Shown here: positions 2,609 through 18,875 of the stretch, one piece after another
Numbering within the stretch: the first letter of the stretch is position 1
How the letters are laid out: every line of letters starts with the position of its first letter
Source of the DNA: Escherichia phage phiEco273
Reading direction: 5' to 3' (one strand)
Sequence record: PP786691.1
Length of the DNA stretch: 44,707 nt
Position numbers and translations under genes: made by a program
The notes under the pieces: model-generated
What the model was told of the DNA's origin: nothing
The model's database searches: none
Seen by the model: the letters and a program-made list of their open reading frames with translations, nothing else

Positions 2609-3148
2609 TCATTTCTGAATGACCCCGCGCGGATCGGTAGACTTCATGCTGCCGTCGGGGTAGACCAGAATAACACCAATCCCAAATCGTTTGGCATCGT
2701 TGCCAGCCTGAATCATGGCGGCAGCTTGCGCCCTGGCGTTGTCGATATGCTCGCGCACCTTGCGCTCGTCGTATTTGGTATATGGGTGTTCCGTACGGGT
2801 GATCTCTTTCGCCACTACACCAGGGCGCTTAAGTTTATAGTTACGGCCTACGCGGGCGTAATTCACCAGGCCCGTGAGCAGAACGCCGCGTTGTGTTTTA
2901 CCACTGCGCAGCATAACGCCGTCCGTGCTCACGCGGAGCACCTCTAACAGCGACCCGTCACGCACATCACGCAGCACATCACCTACGCGGACGTCATGGT
3001 GCACTACCTGCAAATGCTCATGCAGGGTGGCTTTCTTGTACCAGAATACGCGGTCGCTGGCTTCATGGTACATGCGAACATAGTTCGGCAGCACTTCAAT
3101 CGGGGTAAGGAATCTCCCATTATGCTTATTGCGGAATATCATTTTCAT
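2609..3148 (-). CDS. hypothetical protein
   Basis: 179-aa ORF, protein-like composition, no recognised motif. Confidence 0.5.
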   Translation of the reverse strand: MKMIFRNKHNGRFLTPIEVLPNYVRMYHEASDRVFWYKKATLHEHLQVVHHDVRVGDVLRDVRDGSLLEVLRVSTDGVMLRSGKTQRGVLLTGLVNYARVGRNYKLKRPGVVAKEITRTEHPYTKYDERKVREHIDNARAQAAAMIQAGNDAKRFGIGVILVYPDGSMKSTDPRGVIQK

Positions 3149-4600: not shown

Positions 4601-6633
4601 CAGTTTTTCCAGTGCCGCATAAAGCACTTTCTCTTTTCGTTGCGCGGTCCGGCGGTGTTCTCTTCCTTAACCGCGGCCTTGCCTGCCGCCTTCGCCTGTT
4701 CAATAGCGAACGGTGCCAGGGCAACCGGTACGAGGTAGAGAGTCTCGTCGCGTGGCGTGGAGGCAATTGGCTTGACGTCCCATCCGGCAACCACGTCGCC
4801 GAAGTCTGGCCCGGTGCTGGTGGACTGGTGCGCCTCGAACGCTTCTGACTTGCGGAGATCTACCTTAACCTTGCACTTGAGCAGGACGAAGCCACGCGGC
4901 GCTTGCTTGATGCCGTTACGTGACTTCTCATGATACAGGTTCAATTGTCCGGGCTGGTTGTCGTCCGGCTGTTCCAGGAAGAACGCAGAATCGACAGCAC
5001 CATGCAGCGCGCCGGACCCGCGTGGCGTTCTGCTGCCGTTTGCACCTTTAGCCGGGTGGTGGATGACTCCCGCACTACCACCTGTATTTTCCGCGATGGC
5101 CTTCAGCGCTTTGACCACTTCACCCATATCGCTGGCGTTGTTCTCGTCGAACGGTTTAGCATCCGCGGACCGCAACGCAACAGTCTGGTTTAGTGAGTCG
5201 AACGCCACCAGGCCAACCGGTTCGCCGTTAGCGGTGCGGTTGATAAAGCTGATAACTTCGCGCAAGCCTGATTTGCTGGTGATATCCCAGCCGCGTGACT
5301 GCAGGTCTATAATGTGCAGCTTGTCCAGGTCGTGCTCATATTTAATCTGCAATGCTTCTTTACGCTGGTTGGAGGCTTCGCCACCTTCCGCATCGAAATA
5401 GAAGCAATGAGACTGGACGACCTTCGCACCGCCAAACGGAATACCGGCGGCAACCGCTCCCATCTGGCCCAGCACATAGAAAGACTTACCGATATTCGAC
5501 TCGCCAGCCATGTACCAGGTCGATTTAAAGTTAATCAACCCCTCGATAATCGGGTCGTGCTTACTGAACAGCGCAACCGGCTCGTTATCCAGATCCGCAT
5601 CGGTGCACACGCCGTATTCTTCGCCGTCGCCAACCGCATCAACGATATGTTCATAGCACGATTCCACTTCTTCGTCGTCCAGCCCCGGAAGGATGGCGGC
5701 GATTTGCTTACGGGACATATTGTGTGGCTCGACGTTCAGGTGATCCGGGATCCCGATAAGACGTAGCGCCAGGTGCTGGTGTCTGTTCAGTTCCGAGCAA
5801 CACTCGTTACCGGTGTGCATACACTTGAAACGGATCTCGCCATCCTTGACCATGATAGCCGTCGACCCTTCGCCGCTGTGCAGATGTTCGTTCGGGCACG
5901 GCACTTCATAACCGCGACCGGAAGATAACTCCTCGAATCCTGCCTGGAAGCACCAGTCCAGAATACCGTCTGCCACTGCGTCGTCACCCTGGGTAAGCTC
6001 GCGGCGTACTTCCTCTTTTTCCACCCCCAGCTTGTCAGCCAGGCGGAGCAGACGACGGACGCGGGCGCGCTTGCCATAGTGGCACTTAATAACAGACTGC
6101 TGGTGTGGCAGGTACATCAGGCGGTTTGTGTCTTTCGTGCAATCGTCGAAGTCCACATCTGACAGACCCAGTTGGTGTAATAGTGCATACTGGACGCGGC
6201 CCAGGTCTTCAGCCGGTACAGGCTTGTCAGTGAGTACCAGGAATCGAGCGCAACGCGTGCCGCCTTTCAGTGGGTGACGGTCGCCGGTTGTGGTGTGAAA
6301 TACGTGTTCCAGCCCCGCGTCAATGAACGCCTTACGGCAGCGGCGTAGGGTGCGGGTGTCGGTACGGTCAATATCGAAGAACAGGATCGAGCGGTCCACC
6401 GCACTGGTCTTACGACGCAATCCGTCACTGGTATACGCCACGATGCCGTCGGCCTTACGCTTGCGGCGCGCATACTCGGCTTTATCTTCCGTCTTGTTGA
6501 TATGCACCGAGGAGATTTCTTTCGCATCTTTGATAAATTCGAAAAATTCATCGGTGGTCATCTGGAAGTTTTCCGCCCTGGCTTTTTCGCCTTTTTTAGC
6601 GGGTCTTGTAACAGCGAATTTAATTAAGCTCAT
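4600..6633 (-). CDS. DNA primase/helicase (N-terminal primase-polymerase-like domain, C-terminal RecA/DnaB-like P-loop NTPase)
   Basis: 677 aa; Walker A GESNIGKS in C-terminal half; N-terminal region with acidic FFDIDRTD motif resembling prim-pol domains; AAGG RBS. Confidence 0.7.
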   Translation of the reverse strand: MSLIKFAVTRPAKKGEKARAENFQMTTDEFFEFIKDAKEISSVHINKTEDKAEYARRKRKADGIVAYTSDGLRRKTSAVDRSILFFDIDRTDTRTLRRCRKAFIDAGLEHVFHTTTGDRHPLKGGTRCARFLVLTDKPVPAEDLGRVQYALLHQLGLSDVDFDDCTKDTNRLMYLPHQQSVIKCHYGKRARVRRLLRLADKLGVEKEEVRRELTQGDDAVADGILDWCFQAGFEELSSGRGYEVPCPNEHLHSGEGSTAIMVKDGEIRFKCMHTGNECCSELNRHQHLALRLIGIPDHLNVEPHNMSRKQIAAILPGLDDEEVESCYEHIVDAVGDGEEYGVCTDADLDNEPVALFSKHDPIIEGLINFKSTWYMAGESNIGKSFYVLGQMGAVAAGIPFGGAKVVQSHCFYFDAEGGEASNQRKEALQIKYEHDLDKLHIIDLQSRGWDITSKSGLREVISFINRTANGEPVGLVAFDSLNQTVALRSADAKPFDENNASDMGEVVKALKAIAENTGGSAGVIHHPAKGANGSRTPRGSGALHGAVDSAFFLEQPDDNQPGQLNLYHEKSRNGIKQAPRGFVLLKCKVKVDLRKSEAFEAHQSTSTGPDFGDVVAGWDVKPIASTPRDETLYLVPVALAPFAIEQAKAAGKAAVKEENTAGPRNEKRKCFMRHWKN

Positions 6634-11148: not shown

Positions 11149-13437
11149 AAAGACTTCGAACGCCTTTTTCTCGATACCGAGACATTTAGCGGGGTGGACC
11201 TGAAGAAAGTGGGCGCATACGCCTACGCGGAACACCCAACTACCGAGATTATGATTTGCACATACGCCATCGACGAGGGCCGCGTACAGACATGGGATTG
11301 CACCGAATCCCCCACAATGCCGCGTGAACTGCGCAAGGCGCTCCGCCGGGTATCCCGCAAGAAAGCAAAAATCGTGATGGCTAACGGCCTCCTGTTTGAC
11401 CGCCTGGTTATTCGCGAGAAGTGGGGCATTGACCTGCCGGTAGGCCAGATCGAAGATACCATGATTATGGCCTTTCGCCACGCGCTGCCGGGTAGCCTCG
11501 ATATGCAGTGCCAGGTGTTGGGCGTTGACGCAGAGCACGCGAAGGATAAGGCTGGCAAGGCGCTAATCAAACGATTCTGTAAGCCAACCCCTAAGACCTA
11601 CAAAATCCGTCGCTATACGCGCGAGACGCACCCCGAGGAGTGGGCTAAATTCCTGCGCTACGCCGCGCTGGATATTGTTGCTATGCGTGAAGTCTACTGG
11701 CGCATACCAGACTGGGGCAACACGCCGAAGGAAGATGAAATCCTGCTTATTGACCAGATGATTAACGACCGCGGCTTCTATGTGGACGTTGACCTGGCTA
11801 ACGCCGCGATCAAAGCGGTGCAGGCGCATAAGGAAGAATTGAAGGAAGAAGCATGGGAGCGCTTCGGCGGTAAGCTGACCGGCAATGACTTCCTGCCAGC
11901 GCTGCGCGACCTCGCGCCTGCGTTCACAATACACAACGCGCAGAAATCCACGCTTAACGAACTGCTGGAAGACCAGGACTTCCCCGACGAGGGCAAAGTG
12001 CTTATCGAGATGCGCCTCGGCGCGTCATCAACGGCATCGACTAAGTACAATCCGCTCGTAAATGGGCTGTCTGCCGATGGTCGCCGCCGTGGTTGTCTTC
12101 AGTATGGTGGGGCAAAGCGCACGCTACGCTGGGCCGGAAAGGGCTTCCAGCCGCAAAACCTGGCACGCGGCGAGTATAGCGACGACCACGAAGGGAAGAT
12201 TAAGCGCCGTGATGGCGAGAGCGACGTCGCGTTTTGGGTGCGGTCGCACATGCTCACCAACGGCATCAACTCCCTGTTACGCGGGACCGCACACTGGGCG
12301 TATGACATATCGAAGCTAACGGCCTCGACTGTTCGCGGGTGCATTATTCCGGCGAAGGGTAAGAAGTTTGTCGTAGCGGACTACTCCAACGTGGAAGGGC
12401 GTGGCCTCGCCTGGATCGCTGGCGAGAAAACCGCGCTAATGGTGTTTAGGGCGGGTCGCGATATCTATTGTGAAACTGCCGGTAAGATGTTTGGCCTCGA
12501 CCCGGAATACATTAAAGCCAACCGCAAAGACTTACGCCAGATCGGTAAGGCGTGCGAATTGGGCCTGGGCTATGGTGGTGGCGTGGCGGCGTTCTTGCAG
12601 TTCGCTAAAAACCTGGGCCTCGACCTTTACGCGATGGCTGAAGTGATGAAGGGCACATTCCCCGATCACATTTGGGCGGCGGCGAAACGGGGTTATGAGT
12701 ACGCCCGGATCAACGAAGCGAAGCGCCCGCCGAAGCCTGGCAAGAAGGACGAGCGCCCAACTTATATACTGCCGAAAAACGTATGGTTGACGTGTGATGC
12801 GATCAAACGTATGTGGCGCGAGTCGCACCCGAAGACGGTAGCATTTTGGGCTGAACTGGAAGACGCGGTGCTCTGCGCGATCCGCAATCCGGGCAAAGCG
12901 TACTGGGCTGGCGCGAACGTTCGCCCGGATGGCAAGAAAGCGCTCAAGATAGTCCGCACGAAGGCGAAGCACGACCCCACCTTCGACGAGGAGCGCGACG
13001 ACCCGAACGCCGCGGGGTGGTGGTTGAAAATCGAGTTGCCGTCGGGGCGCATCATGAGTTATCCGGGCATTGCGCTGTCAGTGACTACCGAGATCGACGA
13101 AGATACCGGCAAGAAGCGCACCAGCACCCGCATTAAATATCAGGGCGAGAATCAGACGACCCGCCAGTGGGGCTTCCAGTACACCTACGGCGGCAAACTC
13201 ACGGAAAACATCATACAGGCGCTGTGTCGCGATATCCTCGCATGGTCCATGCCGGGCGTTGAATCTGCGGGATATGAGATCGTACTGTCCGTACACGATG
13301 AACTGATAACCGAAGTGCCGGATACTGACGACTACACAACCGAGGAGTTGTGCGCGCTGATGTGCGACCTGCCTGTTTGGGCGAAAGGCTTCCCGCTTGC
13401 CGCGGAAGGCGACATTATGTACAGGTACAGAAAATAA
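11146..13437 (+). CDS. DNA polymerase, family A (PolA-like) with 3'-5' exonuclease domain
   Basis: 763 aa; N-terminal exonuclease motif LFLDTETFSG; long polymerase-like C-terminal region ending ...SVHDELITEVP (family A motif C-like). Confidence 0.8.
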   Translation: MKDFERLFLDTETFSGVDLKKVGAYAYAEHPTTEIMICTYAIDEGRVQTWDCTESPTMPRELRKALRRVSRKKAKIVMANGLLFDRLVIREKWGIDLPVGQIEDTMIMAFRHALPGSLDMQCQVLGVDAEHAKDKAGKALIKRFCKPTPKTYKIRRYTRETHPEEWAKFLRYAALDIVAMREVYWRIPDWGNTPKEDEILLIDQMINDRGFYVDVDLANAAIKAVQAHKEELKEEAWERFGGKLTGNDFLPALRDLAPAFTIHNAQKSTLNELLEDQDFPDEGKVLIEMRLGASSTASTKYNPLVNGLSADGRRRGCLQYGGAKRTLRWAGKGFQPQNLARGEYSDDHEGKIKRRDGESDVAFWVRSHMLTNGINSLLRGTAHWAYDISKLTASTVRGCIIPAKGKKFVVADYSNVEGRGLAWIAGEKTALMVFRAGRDIYCETAGKMFGLDPEYIKANRKDLRQIGKACELGLGYGGGVAAFLQFAKNLGLDLYAMAEVMKGTFPDHIWAAAKRGYEYARINEAKRPPKPGKKDERPTYILPKNVWLTCDAIKRMWRESHPKTVAFWAELEDAVLCAIRNPGKAYWAGANVRPDGKKALKIVRTKAKHDPTFDEERDDPNAAGWWLKIELPSGRIMSYPGIALSVTTEIDEDTGKKRTSTRIKYQGENQTTRQWGFQYTYGGKLTENIIQALCRDILAWSMPGVESAGYEIVLSVHDELITEVPDTDDYTTEELCALMCDLPVWAKGFPLAAEGDIMYRYRK

Positions 13438-13715
13438 TGACACCAGAAGGCAAGATCCAAAGTTACCTTATGAAGCGGGTAAAAGCCGTCGGCGGATTCT
13501 GCCGTAAAGTGGCATGGGAGGGGCGCGCAGGAGCGCCCGACCTGATAATCATCATCAACGGCAAGATAGTTTTCGTCGAAGTGAAGCGCCCCGGCGGCAA
13601 ACCGAAGCCGCACCAGGTACGAGAACATGAGCGAATGGCCCGCCGCGGTGCGGACGTTCGCGTCATCGACAACATAGCCGACTGTGATTTATTGGTTGCT
13701 GAATTGGTCGCGTAG
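13437..13715 (+). CDS. VRR-NUC domain nuclease
   Basis: ATG overlaps polymerase stop (TAATG); sequence ...GAPDLIIIINGKIVFVEVKRPGGKPKPHQ matches the VRR-NUC D...E.K core. Confidence 0.7.
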   Translation: MTPEGKIQSYLMKRVKAVGGFCRKVAWEGRAGAPDLIIIINGKIVFVEVKRPGGKPKPHQVREHERMARRGADVRVIDNIADCDLLVAELVA

Positions 13716-13755
13716 CAGTATAGTTGGCAGGTTAGCCCTATCGAGGATTTTAGAA

Positions 13756-13929
13756 ATGGTTGAAGAAAAACGTTGTAGTAATTGCGGTTGCGTCAAGCCG
13801 CTATCCCAGTTCCACAAATACACCGGCAAAACTGCGCGCAGCCCCGATGGGTATCGTGCCGAGTGCAAATCGTGCCGCAATAAGAAAGAGCGTGAACGGC
13901 AGCGCCGCTACCGCGCAGCGCAAAAATAA
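13756..13929 (+). CDS. small zinc-ribbon protein (CxxC...CxxC)
   Basis: 57 aa from ATG 13756 with GAGGA RBS; CSNCGC ... CKSCRNK; basic C-terminus. Confidence 0.45.
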   Translation: MVEEKRCSNCGCVKPLSQFHKYTGKTARSPDGYRAECKSCRNKKERERQRRYRAAQK

Positions 13930-13972: not shown

Positions 13973-14191
13973 ATGAAAGATCATTACCGACTCACCAAGC
14001 TGGGCGAATGTAAACCGGGCGATCGCGTATGGTTTATCGCGGGCATGAATGACCCGCTGCCGTTGACGGTATGCTGGCAAAAATTTAAGAGCTTCCGGGC
14101 GACGGGTGTGCACATCGGGCACCGCACCAACTACGACGCCACAAAAAGGAACTGGAACAGTGAAACCGAAGTCTGGAAAAAGGCGGAATAG
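13973..14191 (+). CDS. hypothetical protein
   Basis: 72 aa from ATG 13973 (GGGAGA RBS). Confidence 0.4.
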   Translation: MKDHYRLTKLGECKPGDRVWFIAGMNDPLPLTVCWQKFKSFRATGVHIGHRTNYDATKRNWNSETEVWKKAE

Positions 14192-14195
14192 AGAT

Positions 14196-15620
14196 ATGGC
14201 ACGTTTCCGACGTCGCGAATATCAGAAGTTGATAACCGCGTTCATCCTCAAGCATAAGCGCTGCAATATTTGGGCGACAATGGGGTCGGGTAAAACCGGC
14301 GCGACTATGTGGGCGCTGAATAAAATGTTCCAGACTGGTATCCTGTCCAACCAGGAGGACCGCGTACTGGTGCTGGCCCCGCTGCGCGTTGCGTCCGGTA
14401 CATGGCCCCCGGAGCAGGAGAAATGGCGCTTCCCCGCCCTGCTGGTAGTAGACGGCACCGGGTCAGAGAAGGACCGCATCGCTGCGCTTGAGAGCGACGC
14501 TAACGTGGTTTGTGTTAACTATGATGTGGTTGAGTGGCTGGTTGACTATTGCGGCGACGAGTGGCCCTTTACGGTCGTTGTTGCCGATGAATCCACTAAG
14601 CTGAAAGGCTACCGCAGCAAGCAGGGCAGTAAGCGCGCCCGCGCCCTGGCGGCGATCGCACATAAGCGCGTCAAGCGCTGGATTAACCTTACAGGCACAC
14701 CCGCGCCAAACGGATTGAAAGACCTGTGGGGTCAGACGTGGTTTGTCGACGGTGGCGAACGCCTCGGCAGTAGCTATAAGGCATTTACGGACCGCTGGTT
14801 TATTAGCAAGCCTGTTAAGCCTGGCAGCTTCACGATGCAACACGCCCCGCTCAAGAACTCCGAGAAAGAAATACAACAACGCCTGTCTGACGTATCGCTC
14901 ACCGTTGACGCGGCTGAATACTTCGGATGTGATAAACCAATCTATACGCCGGTTGTTGTGGACCTGCCGAGGAAAGCCCGCAAGATTTATGACCAGTTCG
15001 AAGCGGAGCTATTTGCCGAACTGGAAAGCGGAACGGTGGAGGCGGCGAACGCTGCGTCGAAGACTATTAAGTGCCTTCAGCTTGCTTCCGGGGCCGTGTA
15101 TAAGGTCGACGAAGACGGCGAACGGACCGACGAATGGGTGAAAATTCACGACGCTAAGCTGGACGCGCTGGAAAGTATCGTGGAGGAGTTGAACGGCGCA
15201 CCGTTGCTCGTCGCATACCAGTACAAGCATGACTTGGCACGTCTTAAGAAGAAATTCCCACACGGCGTCGCTATGGGTAAGGGAAAGCAAGGCAATAAGG
15301 ATATGGAAGCGTGGAACAGGGGCGAGATCCCCATCATGTTCGCACACCCGGCATCGGCGGGTCACGGCCTTAACTTGCAGGATGGCGGACACCACCTTGC
15401 TATCTTCTCAGACACCTGGAACTTTGAGCACTTTTCGCAGATCGTGGAGCGTATCGGGCCGGTTCGCCAGATACAAGCCGGACACCCTCGTCCGGTATTC
15501 GTCTACATTATCCAGGCGCGCGGCACACTTGACGAACTGGTCGCCGAGCGTCGCGACAGTAAGCGGGATATTCAGGACGATTTGATGGAATACATGAAAG
15601 CTAAAAAGGCGCGCAAATGA
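14196..15620 (+). CDS. SNF2/DEAD-like superfamily 2 helicase
   Basis: ATG 14196; Walker A GSGKTG, motif II VVADESTKLK, helicase C-terminal domain. Confidence 0.75.
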   Translation: MARFRRREYQKLITAFILKHKRCNIWATMGSGKTGATMWALNKMFQTGILSNQEDRVLVLAPLRVASGTWPPEQEKWRFPALLVVDGTGSEKDRIAALESDANVVCVNYDVVEWLVDYCGDEWPFTVVVADESTKLKGYRSKQGSKRARALAAIAHKRVKRWINLTGTPAPNGLKDLWGQTWFVDGGERLGSSYKAFTDRWFISKPVKPGSFTMQHAPLKNSEKEIQQRLSDVSLTVDAAEYFGCDKPIYTPVVVDLPRKARKIYDQFEAELFAELESGTVEAANAASKTIKCLQLASGAVYKVDEDGERTDEWVKIHDAKLDALESIVEELNGAPLLVAYQYKHDLARLKKKFPHGVAMGKGKQGNKDMEAWNRGEIPIMFAHPASAGHGLNLQDGGHHLAIFSDTWNFEHFSQIVERIGPVRQIQAGHPRPVFVYIIQARGTLDELVAERRDSKRDIQDDLMEYMKAKKARK

Positions 15621-16312
15621 TTATCTGGTCATTATTTGACGGCAGCGGCTTGATGATTGAGCGTGCTGCCGAGATGGGGCATAAGTGTTATTGCTTCAAC
15701 TACTCCGAAGCCGATCATGGGTCTTACCTGGACTACCGGATTTATGGTCGCGGGATCCGCTATCGTAATGAGTTTATCGATCTGGACTTTGTAGACCGCG
15801 CGATGAATGGCGATTTCGGCGCGCCGGATATCATCTACGCATTCCCGCCGTGTACGGATCTGGCGGTGAGCGGTGCGCCAGCTTTCCCGCGCAAGCGTGC
15901 AAAAGACCCAGCCTTTCAGCTTAAGGCGGTGCGCACCGCGAAGATCGCCGCTTACCTGGGTGACTTCTTCGAAGTGCCATATATGATTGAGAATCCGCGC
16001 AGCGTGCTATCAACTCAATGGCGTAAGCCGGACCACTCGTTTGATCCGTGGGAGTATGGCGGATATCTGCCGGAGGATGACGTGCACCCGTTATTCCCGG
16101 AATACATCAACGCCCGCGATTCATATCCGAAGCTGACCTGCTTATGGACCGGCAACGGCTTCCGTATGCCAGAGAAGAAACCTGTTTTCGTTGAAAAAGG
16201 GTACTCGAAGCAGTATAGTCGCCTCGGAGGCAAATCTGCCCGCACCAAATTAATCAGGTCGCTCACCCCGCGCGGCTTCGCGATAGCGGTTAACGAGGAA
16301 AATTTAAAATGA
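15617..16312 (+). CDS. minimal C5-cytosine methyltransferase-like protein
   Basis: 231 aa; motif I-like LFDGSG, motif IV-like FPPCTDLAVSG (catalytic Cys), motif VI-like IENPRS; no obvious target-recognition domain; ATGA coupling with upstream helicase. Confidence 0.45.
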   Translation: MIIWSLFDGSGLMIERAAEMGHKCYCFNYSEADHGSYLDYRIYGRGIRYRNEFIDLDFVDRAMNGDFGAPDIIYAFPPCTDLAVSGAPAFPRKRAKDPAFQLKAVRTAKIAAYLGDFFEVPYMIENPRSVLSTQWRKPDHSFDPWEYGGYLPEDDVHPLFPEYINARDSYPKLTCLWTGNGFRMPEKKPVFVEKGYSKQYSRLGGKSARTKLIRSLTPRGFAIAVNEENLK

Positions 16313-16632
16313 ATACTGCATTCGACGCCATCGACTTTTCAGTGGCAATGACCAATCAGCTTTTTTCCTACGACAGCAAGACCGGCGTTATCCGCCTTAA
16401 GTCAACCGGCTGCAAGATTGGCAACCTCAATACTGCCGATGGCGGTACTCGTATCGAATGCAACGGCAAGACGCTGTCTGGCGCGCGCGTGGCGTGGATT
16501 ATCGCGACCGGCAATACAATCCCCCCAGGCTTCGCCGTTGTGTGCCGTCAGCGCACGCCAGGCCATTACGGCAACCGGATCAGCAATCTTTATTTGGTGG
16601 ACGTTGCGCGCGACCCTAACTTTTATGCGTAA
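16309..16632 (+). CDS. HNH-like (degenerate) endonuclease-fold protein
   Basis: 107 aa; pattern SYDSKTGVIRLK...ARVAWIIATG...GNRISNLYLV resembles HNH_3 homing-endonuclease layout with catalytic His apparently replaced. Confidence 0.35.
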   Translation: MNTAFDAIDFSVAMTNQLFSYDSKTGVIRLKSTGCKIGNLNTADGGTRIECNGKTLSGARVAWIIATGNTIPPGFAVVCRQRTPGHYGNRISNLYLVDVARDPNFYA

Positions 16633-16666
16633 ATTGGTTGCATAATCGTATTGGTTGCATTATATT
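16633..16666 (+). promoter_or_regulatory. Promoter-like element with two direct ATTGGTTGCAT repeats: -35 TTGCAT (16638-16643), 17-bp spacer, -10 TATATT (16661-16666)
   Basis: Direct reading; same architecture recurs at 38270-38310, 18292-18325, 22216-22248 and on the minus strand at ~3895-3960. Confidence 0.5.
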
Positions 16667-16669
16667 GAG

Positions 16670-16696
16670 GGTGTCCGGTTTGGACGCCTTTTTTAA
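16670..16696 (+). terminator. intrinsic terminator-like hairpin (GGTGTCC-GGTTT-GGACGCC + TTTTTT) inside the leader of the next gene
   Basis: 7-bp stem with one G-U pair followed by six T; overlaps predicted start site of the upstream promoter. Confidence 0.4.
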
Positions 16697-16713
16697 TACC
16701 TGGAGACAACACG

Positions 16714-17172
16714 ATGAAAATTTTACAAGAAGAAAAAGATTACTGGTCCGCGCAATGCCTTAAAGCCCGCGAGCAGGCAGAGCGCGTCAGCGCGCTGGCA
16801 GATACCTACCTGTCAAGCTATGAAACGGAAGAAAAGCGCCGCATGGAGTTAGAGGATCGCTTCGAACTGCTTTTTGAATTGATGGGGATTATGCAGCGCA
16901 CAGGATACACCACCAGCGTGGCGCTAAACCGCATCACTGCCGAAGGTCTGCGCGAGCATTGTAAACGCGCCGAGGAGTACGTGCGACCGAAGGGTCGCCA
17001 GTCTAAGATCGACAGGAAAGACCTGGTGCTGATAGCGTGGCGTGCGAACGGCAGCTACTATTCCGATAGCCGACCTCTTGGCAAGGATGAGATGGCGCGG
17101 ATCCAGCGCGTACTTACCCGAGACAAGAAAACGGCCCTGTACGCACTGGACCCGCAGAATGACGAAGAGTGA
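16714..17172 (+). CDS. hypothetical coiled-coil protein
   Basis: 152 aa, GGAGA RBS. Confidence 0.5.
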   Translation: MKILQEEKDYWSAQCLKAREQAERVSALADTYLSSYETEEKRRMELEDRFELLFELMGIMQRTGYTTSVALNRITAEGLREHCKRAEEYVRPKGRQSKIDRKDLVLIAWRANGSYYSDSRPLGKDEMARIQRVLTRDKKTALYALDPQNDEE

Positions 17173-17644
17173 GCAGAAAGATAGCTGGCGCACGCCGCCA
17201 GCTTTATTTAAACCGCTTCGTCGGAAATACCGATTCCGTTACGATATGGCGGCAAGCGATGCCAATCACCTGCTACCGCGGTACTTCACGGCAGAACACA
17301 GCGCGCTTGATGCGGACTGGGCAGAGTTGAAAGGGTGGAAGTGGTGTAACCCGCCGTATTCCGATCCGCTGCCGTGGGTCGAGTGCGCAGCGCGCGGACG
17401 CCGGACCGTCATGCTACTGAATCAGGACACGTCGACTAAGTGGGCGAGGCTGGCCCGGAAGACCGCCAATATGATAATTCTTCTGGACTGGCGGATTAGA
17501 TTCATTCACGCCGTCACCGGCGAAGTCGGGCCGAGCAATAACAAGTGCCAGCAATTAATAATATTTGACGAAGCGCCGCCCATCGGCAGCGCACAAATTG
17601 AAATAATGAGCGAAGGAGAACTACGTGAATATCTTAATCGTTGA
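17159..17644 (+). CDS. DNA N6-adenine methyltransferase (phage Dam-like family)
   Basis: ATG 17159 (verified); WRTPPALF near N-terminus and NPPY motif (CNPPYS). Confidence 0.7.
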   Translation: MTKSEQKDSWRTPPALFKPLRRKYRFRYDMAASDANHLLPRYFTAEHSALDADWAELKGWKWCNPPYSDPLPWVECAARGRRTVMLLNQDTSTKWARLARKTANMIILLDWRIRFIHAVTGEVGPSNNKCQQLIIFDEAPPIGSAQIEIMSEGELREYLNR

Positions 17645-17849: not shown

Positions 17850-18316
17850 AATTACTTATTTGCGATTTGGATGGAGTTATTAACGGTTCAAGCGATGCGC
17901 GCGCCGACCTGGTGCCGGGCATAAAAACTAAATCCACCTTTTGGGCGAAGTGGCACAAAGCGCATATACGCGAAGATCTGAACATGGATATGCTGCCGCT
18001 GCTGACCATGTACAAAGAGCAAGGCTTCGAGATCGCGTATCTGACAAACCGGCAGCGAGAATGCTGGGACACCACAGCCGAGCAATTGGAAGTATTCCCT
18101 AGAGGCCGGTTGTTTATGCGCCACATGATGGACGACACCCCGCCACCAGAGTTTAAGGCGTGCGCCGTGTTCAAAATGGTCTGCTACGCGGACGTGTCGG
18201 AACTGGTCATCATTGAAGACTGTCCGAAGAACATCGCGGCAATTCGTCGGGCGTGCAGCGATTTGGTCCCGAAAATTTATGCGATAAACGTTGCAAAATT
18301 CACTTGCAACCAATAG
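17846..18316 (+). CDS. HAD-superfamily phosphatase (nucleotidase / polynucleotide 3'-phosphatase-like)
   Basis: N-terminal motif LICDLDGVI (DxDG[TV]); 156 aa. Confidence 0.5.
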   Translation: MKLLICDLDGVINGSSDARADLVPGIKTKSTFWAKWHKAHIREDLNMDMLPLLTMYKEQGFEIAYLTNRQRECWDTTAEQLEVFPRGRLFMRHMMDDTPPPEFKACAVFKMVCYADVSELVIIEDCPKNIAAIRRACSDLVPKIYAINVAKFTCNQ

Positions 18317-18380
18317 GTTGGTTGCAGTATCTTAATCACGTCGGGGGCAATATCGCCCCATCGCTAAAAAGGGTAATACT

Positions 18381-18875
18381 GTGAAAGCATACGAATACTG
18401 CAAAAATGCCGCCACCACTATGGAGCAGCGCGGGAAAGAAAACGGCTATGACAACGAGAAAGAAGAACGCAGCGCTAAACAGATCGCCGCCGTGTTTAAC
18501 GCGCTTACCGGTCGCGACCTGACCGAGCAAGAAGCCTGGACCTTCCTGATCTGCCTGAAGCTGGTGCGCCAGCACCGTAAGCACCAGGAAGATAATATCG
18601 TGGATCTGGTGGCGTATGCCGCCCTGCTGGGCGAGTCTTACATGACCGTGCAGGACGAGATCCAGGTCGATACAACGGCAGCGCAATACGACAGCCTAAA
18701 AGACTGGCCTACCAAGATCAAAGCCACTAATTTCAATGCTGCTAAGTTCGGCATTGCGGGTCAAGAATTCCAGCCTATGGTCGTGCTCACCGGCGAAGAC
18801 GGATCCAAAATCCTCATGACGCCGGAAGACTTCCGCAACATGGAAAAAACACTGGTGACTGGCGCACTTAAATAA
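18381..18875 (+). CDS. hypothetical protein
   Basis: 164 aa, GTG start with AAGGG RBS. Confidence 0.45.
   Translation: MKAYEYCKNAATTMEQRGKENGYDNEKEERSAKQIAAVFNALTGRDLTEQEAWTFLICLKLVRQHRKHQEDNIVDLVAYAALLGESYMTVQDEIQVDTTAAQYDSLKDWPTKIKATNFNAAKFGIAGQEFQPMVVLTGEDGSKILMTPEDFRNMEKTLVTGALK

Follow-up and report, generated by a model that had tools for sequence, protein, structure and literature searches.

Do the two DNA methyltransferase-like genes of Escherichia phage phiEco273 both encode complete enzymes, and what is the HNH-like open reading frame (ORF) that lies between them? The genes sit in a 3.4-kb block of record PP786691.1, of which a stretch of 44,707 nucleotides (the window) was analysed. 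A preliminary description, made from the sequence, had taken the first gene product, a C5-type protein of 231 amino acids (aa), for a truncated enzyme and the HNH-like ORF for a possible remnant of a mobile intron or homing element. The explanation which in our judgement very probably accounts for the locus is a different one: a C5-cytosine methyltransferase, compact but complete, forms an orphan pair with a PF05869 Dam, and the two are accompanied by a nuclease-dead HNH-like protein that is maintained by selection. It is built on homology, motifs, fold, selection and distribution, and takes the formation of 5-methylcytosine (5mC) from published work on the Dcm protein of phage K42; the sequences that are targeted, a protective role and what the HNH-like protein does are the parts that we infer. 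The underlying claim of two DNA methyltransferase genes, one C5-cytosine and one N6-adenine, is borne out by matches to PHROG 757 and PF05869, by motifs and by predicted fold.

The three motifs on which the C5 assignment had been made, FDGSG (motif I), PPC (motif IV, containing Cys79) and ENP (motif VI, containing Glu125), are all present in the 231-aa protein. In an alignment of 36 homologues, F7, G9 and G11, P77, P78 and C79, and E125, N126 and P127 are invariant, as are many residues of the C-terminal third, and the PPC aligns with that of M.HaeIII. At the place expected for motif VIII there is only W135-R136-K137 (WRK), a possible motif VIII whose first two residues are invariant in the same alignment. 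The protein matched PHROG 757 'DNA methyltransferase' with E=2.4e-82. Its expected membership of PF00145 was recovered in part: the protein has no match of its own, but 23 of the 36 homologues match weakly, the best with E=1.3e-6. A PDB sequence search with the single protein returned noise alone, a search with the family profile gave a marginal match to M.HaeIII (E=0.81), and comparing the profile of the compact family with the C5 methyltransferase of phage eiAU-183 (330 aa) gave no information. Since Pfam and NCBIfam scans of the protein gave nothing, C5 homology was established through the homologues and the predicted fold.

Related proteins numbered 2886 in a word-indexed search and 1970 at E<=0.001 in an exhaustive profile search, and among the matches listed nearly all are of about 210-260 aa. 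A tblastn search found the family in 1511 of 50,697 phage records, with members in Dhillonvirus, Drexlerviridae, Klebsiella siphoviruses and Salmonella phages of the Jersey-like and 9NA-like groups, and also in several Escherichia, Shigella and Klebsiella phages with large genomes (about 120-176 kb). Within Dhillonvirus the ratio of nonsynonymous to synonymous substitution rates (dN/dS) of the gene is 0.02-0.05, indicating strong purifying selection. At 231 aa the protein has the full length of its family, a large group of compact C5-cytosine methyltransferases of about 230 aa, and since the whole family is uniformly short, truncation was rejected. A gene that had looked broken is one of a compact family very common among phages. 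Also considered and rejected was a methyltransferase split or interrupted by an intron, as the two methyltransferase genes belong to unrelated families and each is complete.

The predicted structure of the protein shows a confident DNMT3-like C5-methyltransferase fold, with DNMT3A/B as best match, at about 13-17% sequence identity to the catalytic domains of DNMT3A and DNMT3B (PDB 6u8p, 4u7t, 6w89). In the secondary structure of the model, a separate target-recognition domain between motifs VIII and IX is absent. The earlier statement that the protein lacks such a domain is correct to this extent, but about 70 conserved residues outside the catalytic core (approximately aa 143-173 and 180-218) are left, and according to the model these likely constitute a minimal target-recognition region. 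DNMT3A/B are the C5 enzymes with the smallest target-recognition domain, which fits a protein with just these 70 or so conserved non-core residues. They differ from it in forming oligomers with regulatory domains and in reading CpG, neither of which is indicated here. Compared with M.HhaI, M.HaeIII and E. coli Dcm, which are PF00145 enzymes, the phage protein is shorter by about 100 residues, lacks a separate recognition domain and does not reach PF00145 significance, and its motif VIII is atypical with respect to the classical bacterial C5 methyltransferases. In the mechanism we propose, Cys79 of PPC would attack C6 of the cytosine covalently, Glu125 of ENP would protonate N3 and the FDGSG loop would bind S-adenosylmethionine, while the target would probably be read through the conserved non-core residues, as in DNMT3A/B.

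Evidence for activity comes from phage K42, whose 711-bp 'dcm' gene is the trigger of retron Ec86 (Eco1): all four escaper phages (4/4) were mutated in or just upstream of dcm, and dcm alone, expressed from pBAD in E. coli, was toxic only when the retron was present (10.1101/2023.08.16.553469). Liquid chromatography-mass spectrometry revealed high 5mC on the multicopy single-stranded DNA (msDNA) of Ec86 with wild-type K42 dcm and low 5mC with a C82A/E128A/K175A/K176A mutant or an empty vector; this quadruple mutant, the inactive form, was the sole mutant assayed (10.1101/2023.08.16.553469). The authors of that study superposed their model of K42 Dcm on DNMT3A, found such a dcm gene in 34 of 35 Ec86-sensitive phages and reported the K42 genome to be 95.4% identical to that of the BASEL phage KarlJaspers (Bas06) (10.1101/2023.08.16.553469). 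We observed that the Dcm-like protein of KarlJaspers (236 aa), which is near-identical to K42 Dcm, is 54% identical to the 231-aa protein over the full length (E=2e-86), and that the alignment places C82, E128 and K175 of K42 Dcm at C79, E125 and K172. The proteins belong to the same family, have the catalytic Cys, Glu and Lys in common and give DNMT3A-like models; they differ in that K42 and KarlJaspers are Drexlerviridae, whereas the 231-aa protein is a Dhillonvirus protein known from sequence and model alone. The compact family includes active methyltransferases sensed by Ec86, and we infer the target site of the Dhillonvirus C5 enzyme, and any retron triggering by it, from the K42 system.

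The second methyltransferase gene presents fewer difficulties. Both motifs described for it, WRTPP and NPPY, are present, along with DMAAS, and judged by its sequence the 161-aa product is a clear PF05869 phage Dam (E=9.7e-36; 123.4 bits against a cut-off of 28.1 bits), which also matches PHROG 111 (E=4e-55). Its start is most likely the ATG at 17159, which gives 161 aa as in relatives, and not the GTG at 17042 that opens the ORF. The family is widespread among coliphages; the 1765 phage records with homologues take in Stx-converting, lambda-like and T1-like phages, and dN/dS is 0.09-0.14; a PDB search detected no relative of solved structure by sequence. Beside the PF05869/TIGR01712 family as a whole, the protein shares NPPY and the strong Pfam match, but is short and falls below the TIGR01712 equivalog cut-off. 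The characterised members of this family are those of T1, HP1 and VT2. GATC is the default expectation from these members, and by analogy the phage Dam would methylate adenine at N6, most likely in this sequence.

The HNH-like ORF matched PHROG 99 'HNH endonuclease' (E=4.2e-16), while its match to Pfam HNH_3 (PF13392; E=0.11, 12.6 bits) lies under the 24.8-bit cut-off and covers profile positions 5-21 of 46, ahead of the catalytic Asp-His segment. It was aligned with JohannRWettstein bas63_0046, a genuine HNH_3+AP2 protein (HNH_3 E=6.5e-14). It aligns with this I-HmuI-type protein in the segments '..RxAW..G..P.G' and 'NRxxNL' and in the strand region at the N terminus; it differs in that AHRLAW is changed to GARVAW and VIDH to VVCR, such that Ala replaces the first conserved His and Cys-Arg the catalytic Asp-His, the change to VVCR being seen in its orthologues as well. 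The change from VIDH to VVCR means that the catalytic His is gone, as the preliminary description had supposed of this HNH_3-like ORF. In enzymes of the I-HmuI type the lost His serves as general base. The protein likewise has no C-terminal AP2 or NUMOD DNA-binding module. It falls into just 5 clusters in a collection of 5.8 billion proteins, a PDB sequence search with it gave nothing meaningful, and its AF2 model, computed from an alignment of 6 near-identical sequences, is unreliable (pLDDT 48.6).

Matches to the HNH-like ORF were obtained in 161 phage records, all covering at least 80% of the query; they are Dhillonvirus phages and four Edwardsiella phage records, the latter being the only homologues found outside the genus. 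Identity to the protein is 81-100% in 157 of the 161, about as many as the 160 records matched by the DNA of the whole region. All matched Dhillonvirus records contain the ORF, and direct comparison of five genomes showed it at the same position with a length of 106-107 aa. Its dN/dS is 0.05-0.09 while dS reaches 0.7-1.3. In the Edwardsiella phage eiAU-183 (3860-5882), the homologue gp17 (151 aa, 40% identity, with a weak I-HmuI NUMOD-like match) lies between a helicase gene and that of a 330-aa PF00145 methyltransferase, after which a PF05869 Dam follows. The eiAU-183 group has a C5 enzyme of conventional size where Dhillonvirus has the compact one. The shared position of the HNH-like gene in the two may reflect just the common ancestry of the phage groups.

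That the short C5-like protein has no activity, depends on a partner such as the neighbouring HNH-like protein, or transfers some group different from methyl, as was suggested earlier, appears very improbable to us because of the K42 data, the 54% identity and the low dN/dS taken together. K42 Dcm made 5mC when expressed alone, the catalytic residues of the 231-aa protein are invariant, the fold is DNMT3-like in a family that is short throughout, and the 8yf3 score of the protein was no better than the scores of ordinary methyltransferases. Furthermore, the compact family occurs in 1511 phage records and the HNH-like protein in 161, so dependence on it is no general feature of the family. The proposal that the HNH-like ORF is a functionless, decaying remnant of a homing endonuclease or mobile intron draws on its likeness to HNH_3, the substitution of the catalytic and the first conserved His, the missing AP2/NUMOD module and the sub-threshold Pfam scores. 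Nevertheless we give it very little credence: the frame is intact in five genomes, its sequence is conserved and constrained as described, its position is fixed with its start coupled to the upstream gene, and homing endonuclease genes are typically sporadic in distribution. Nor is an intron indicated, since each flanking gene is complete and the two are unrelated. Rather than a decaying remnant, the HNH-like ORF is a core gene of Dhillonvirus, fixed and under selection; it would represent a domesticated, nuclease-dead descendant of HNH_3, kept for a non-catalytic role that probably involves nucleic-acid binding. A more specific proposal, that it is an accessory of the methyltransferase module, namely a DNA-binding specificity factor or controller for a Dcm-like enzyme with a minimal target-recognition domain, would explain both its translational coupling to the C5 gene in every Dhillonvirus examined and the location of gp17 between a helicase and a C5 and Dam pair, but we hold it to be improbable.

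Several points weigh against the orphan-pair explanation. Motif VIII of the C5 protein reads WRK rather than QxRxR, and the protein alone matches neither PF00145 (E<=1) nor any NCBIfam model. K176 of K42 Dcm corresponds to Leu173, at a position that varies across the family. On TIGR01712 the Dam scores 87 bits, under the equivalog cut-off of 97.05, and some phage-derived Dam-like enzymes have been reported to be non-specific. Searching the literature turned up no methylome determined by experiment for any Dhillonvirus. For the K42 enzyme, CCWGG specificity was an assumption made by analogy with E. coli Dcm, supported just by mutation of the msDNA site (10.1101/2023.08.16.553469). In the same study dcm+ MG1655 with an empty vector gave msDNA with little 5mC, from which it follows that the phage enzyme may not simply copy host Dcm (10.1101/2023.08.16.553469); the compact enzyme may target a cytosine or context other than that of host Dcm. 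Finally, in the BASEL study Dhillonvirus phages were comparatively sensitive to type I and II restriction-modification (RM) systems (PMC8594841).

Self-methylation against methylation-sensitive nucleases is the conventional and still the best reading of what the two enzymes do, and we consider it plausible. The two stand-alone ('orphan') methyltransferases encoded in the replication-module block would presumably modify phage DNA as it replicates, along with any other DNA present in the cell, and full methylation would be ensured regardless of the Dam and Dcm status of the host. Protection would be limited to nucleases reading those particular sites, and because Dhillonvirus phages are comparatively RM-sensitive, any such protection should be narrow. 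The window contains 168 GATC sites (observed/expected 0.84) and 150 CCWGG sites (observed/expected 0.98), which is neither avoidance nor enrichment enough to inform specificity; the counts are compatible with protection and no proof of it. Methylation is also a liability, as retrons sense it: K42 Dcm triggers Ec86, and a phage N6-adenine methyltransferase methylating GATC triggers retrons Asa1 and Squ1 (PMC12548924). It would also be conceivable that the methyltransferases mainly serve the timing of replication or packaging, the avoidance of mismatch repair or other methyl-directed processes, or gene regulation. In favour of such roles, the usual laboratory host K-12 is already Dam+ Dcm+, the genes adjoin the helicase gene in the replication module, and besides the RM sensitivity of Dhillonvirus there is no simple link between methyltransferase genes and restriction resistance among the related Drexlerviridae (PMC8594841). 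These roles are however without direct evidence, orphan phage Dam and Dcm are by established knowledge classically linked to protection from site-specific enzymes, and Dcm is missing in many natural hosts, for example E. coli B; we regard them as unlikely, though deserving of consideration, to be the main function. In practical terms, knowledge of the two enzymes could help in predicting which retrons, methylation-dependent nucleases and RM systems will target Dhillonvirus phages that are employed therapeutically or as models in the laboratory.

The 3.4-kb stretch around the gene block matched 160 phage records, with about 80-93% of nucleotides identical; nearly all of these are Escherichia or Shigella phages of the genus Dhillonvirus, including SSL-2009a, the HK578 group, SECphi18 and the BASEL phages Oekolampad and PaulFeyerabend. 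By sequence, the window is that of a Dhillonvirus (an HK578/SSL-2009a-like coliphage), with nucleotide identities of about 90-92% to more than 150 genomes in GenBank. The block is tightly packed, all on the + strand, and belongs to the replication module of the genus, next to the helicase gene (Table 1). Relatives carry the labels 'Dcm-like C5 cytosine methyltransferase', 'putative homing/HNH endonuclease', 'hypothetical protein' (sometimes 'DNA ligase') and 'Dam-like N6-adenine methyltransferase' for these genes; both methyltransferase genes are ordinary ones, already annotated in more than 150 genomes, and their biology is largely known. Two records bear doubtful host labels, for which contamination or mislabelling may be the explanation: MG065648.1 'Campylobacter phage A144' is 91% identical in nucleotide sequence to the coliphage group over the 3.4-kb region, and the HNH-like ORF of OQ221563.1 'Acinetobacter phage NJ01' has 94% protein identity to that group.

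Table 1. Positions of genes, motifs and sequence elements in the window
Feature	Position	Strand	Remarks
VRR-NUC nuclease ORF	within 13350-13929		upstream of helicase
Zinc-finger-like ORF	within 13350-13929		81 aa
SNF2-type helicase	14106-15620	+	14196 is the start homologous to annotated relatives
Compact Dcm-like C5-cytosine DNA methyltransferase	15617-16312	+	231 aa; ATG overlaps helicase stop (ATGA)
Motif I, FDGSG	15635-15649		aa 7-11
Motif IV, PPC	15845-15853		aa 77-79
Motif VI, ENP	15989-15997		aa 125-127
WRK, possible motif VIII	16019-16027		aa 135-137
HNH_3-like ORF	16309-16632	+	107 aa; start overlaps methyltransferase stop codon (ATGA)
Intergenic spacer	16633-16713	+	81 bp; two boxes, hairpin, T run, ribosome-binding site
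Tandem ATTGGTTGCAT boxes	16633-16643, 16650-16660		in spacer
Hairpin	16667-16691		in spacer
orf152	16714-17172	+	152 aa, no assigned function; PHROG 10530 E=4e-87
Phage Dam-type N6-adenine DNA methyltransferase	17159-17644	+	161 aa; PF05869; overlaps end of orf152 by 14 nt
Dam WRTPP	17186-17200		aa 10-14 (161-aa numbering)
Dam DMAAS	17243-17257		
Dam NPPY	17348-17359		aa 64-67 (161-aa numbering)
DUF6378 protein	18381-18875		164 aa
ATTGGTTGCAT copies	3379, 3911(-), 4033, 7160(-), 16633, 16650, 18304(-), 22215, 38284, 38298		at most one mismatch
Palindromic arrangement, TGCAACCAACCTATTGGTTGCA	18305-18326		

The preliminary description had placed a single ORF between the methyltransferase genes; there are two, orf152 having been overlooked. 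Before it lies a spacer with two tandem ATTGGTTGCAT boxes, a terminator-like hairpin with a 10-bp stem (-14.9 kcal/mol) followed by a T run, and, downstream of the hairpin, a ribosome-binding site (GGAG). The hairpin was not listed by a simple terminator scan; the spacer, hairpin included, is conserved in phage Oekolampad. It could act as a terminator or attenuator between the helicase/Dcm/HNH unit and the orf152/Dam unit. The 11-bp box ATTGGTTGCAT occurs in 10 copies in the window at no more than one mismatch, against 0.98 expected. Copies are often tandem (16633/16650 and 38284/38298) or palindromic (TGCAACCAACCTATTGGTTGCA), and several lie just upstream of a ribosome-binding site and ATG; the box probably serves a phage regulator as operator or promoter element.

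In many relatives, among them Oekolampad and Envy, an extra 243-bp ORF lies exactly between the spacer and orf152; it encodes an 80-aa protein with a hydrophobic segment (4728-4970 and 2905-3147 in two of the relatives) and is absent here at 16713/16714. As the same ribosome-binding site now serves orf152, this has the appearance of a precise one-gene insertion or deletion. The product of orf152 has no match in Pfam, NCBIfam or PDB, and with a dN/dS of 0.16-0.21 the gene is the least constrained of the five compared. PHROG 10530 and several GenBank records label it 'DNA ligase', to which the GenBank note for phage Envy adds 'Possible DNA ligase but no evidence'; we rejected this label as unsupported, and it looks like a propagated annotation error.

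Downstream of the block, the DUF6378 protein (Pfam E=1e-9) matches PHROGs labelled 'phosphofructokinase', and the phage Ioannina gene at the corresponding position, by gene order alone, is annotated as a second 'DNA N-6-adenine-methyltransferase'; as the protein here has no match to a methyltransferase domain, these labels are unsupported in this phage. Upstream of the helicase gene there is a VRR-NUC nuclease ORF (Pfam E=6e-6, PHROG 93). The 81-aa zinc-finger-like ORF in the same interval matches PHROGs labelled 'Lar-like restriction alleviation protein' and 'endonuclease VII', and it may provide a further anti-restriction function adjoining the methyltransferase block.

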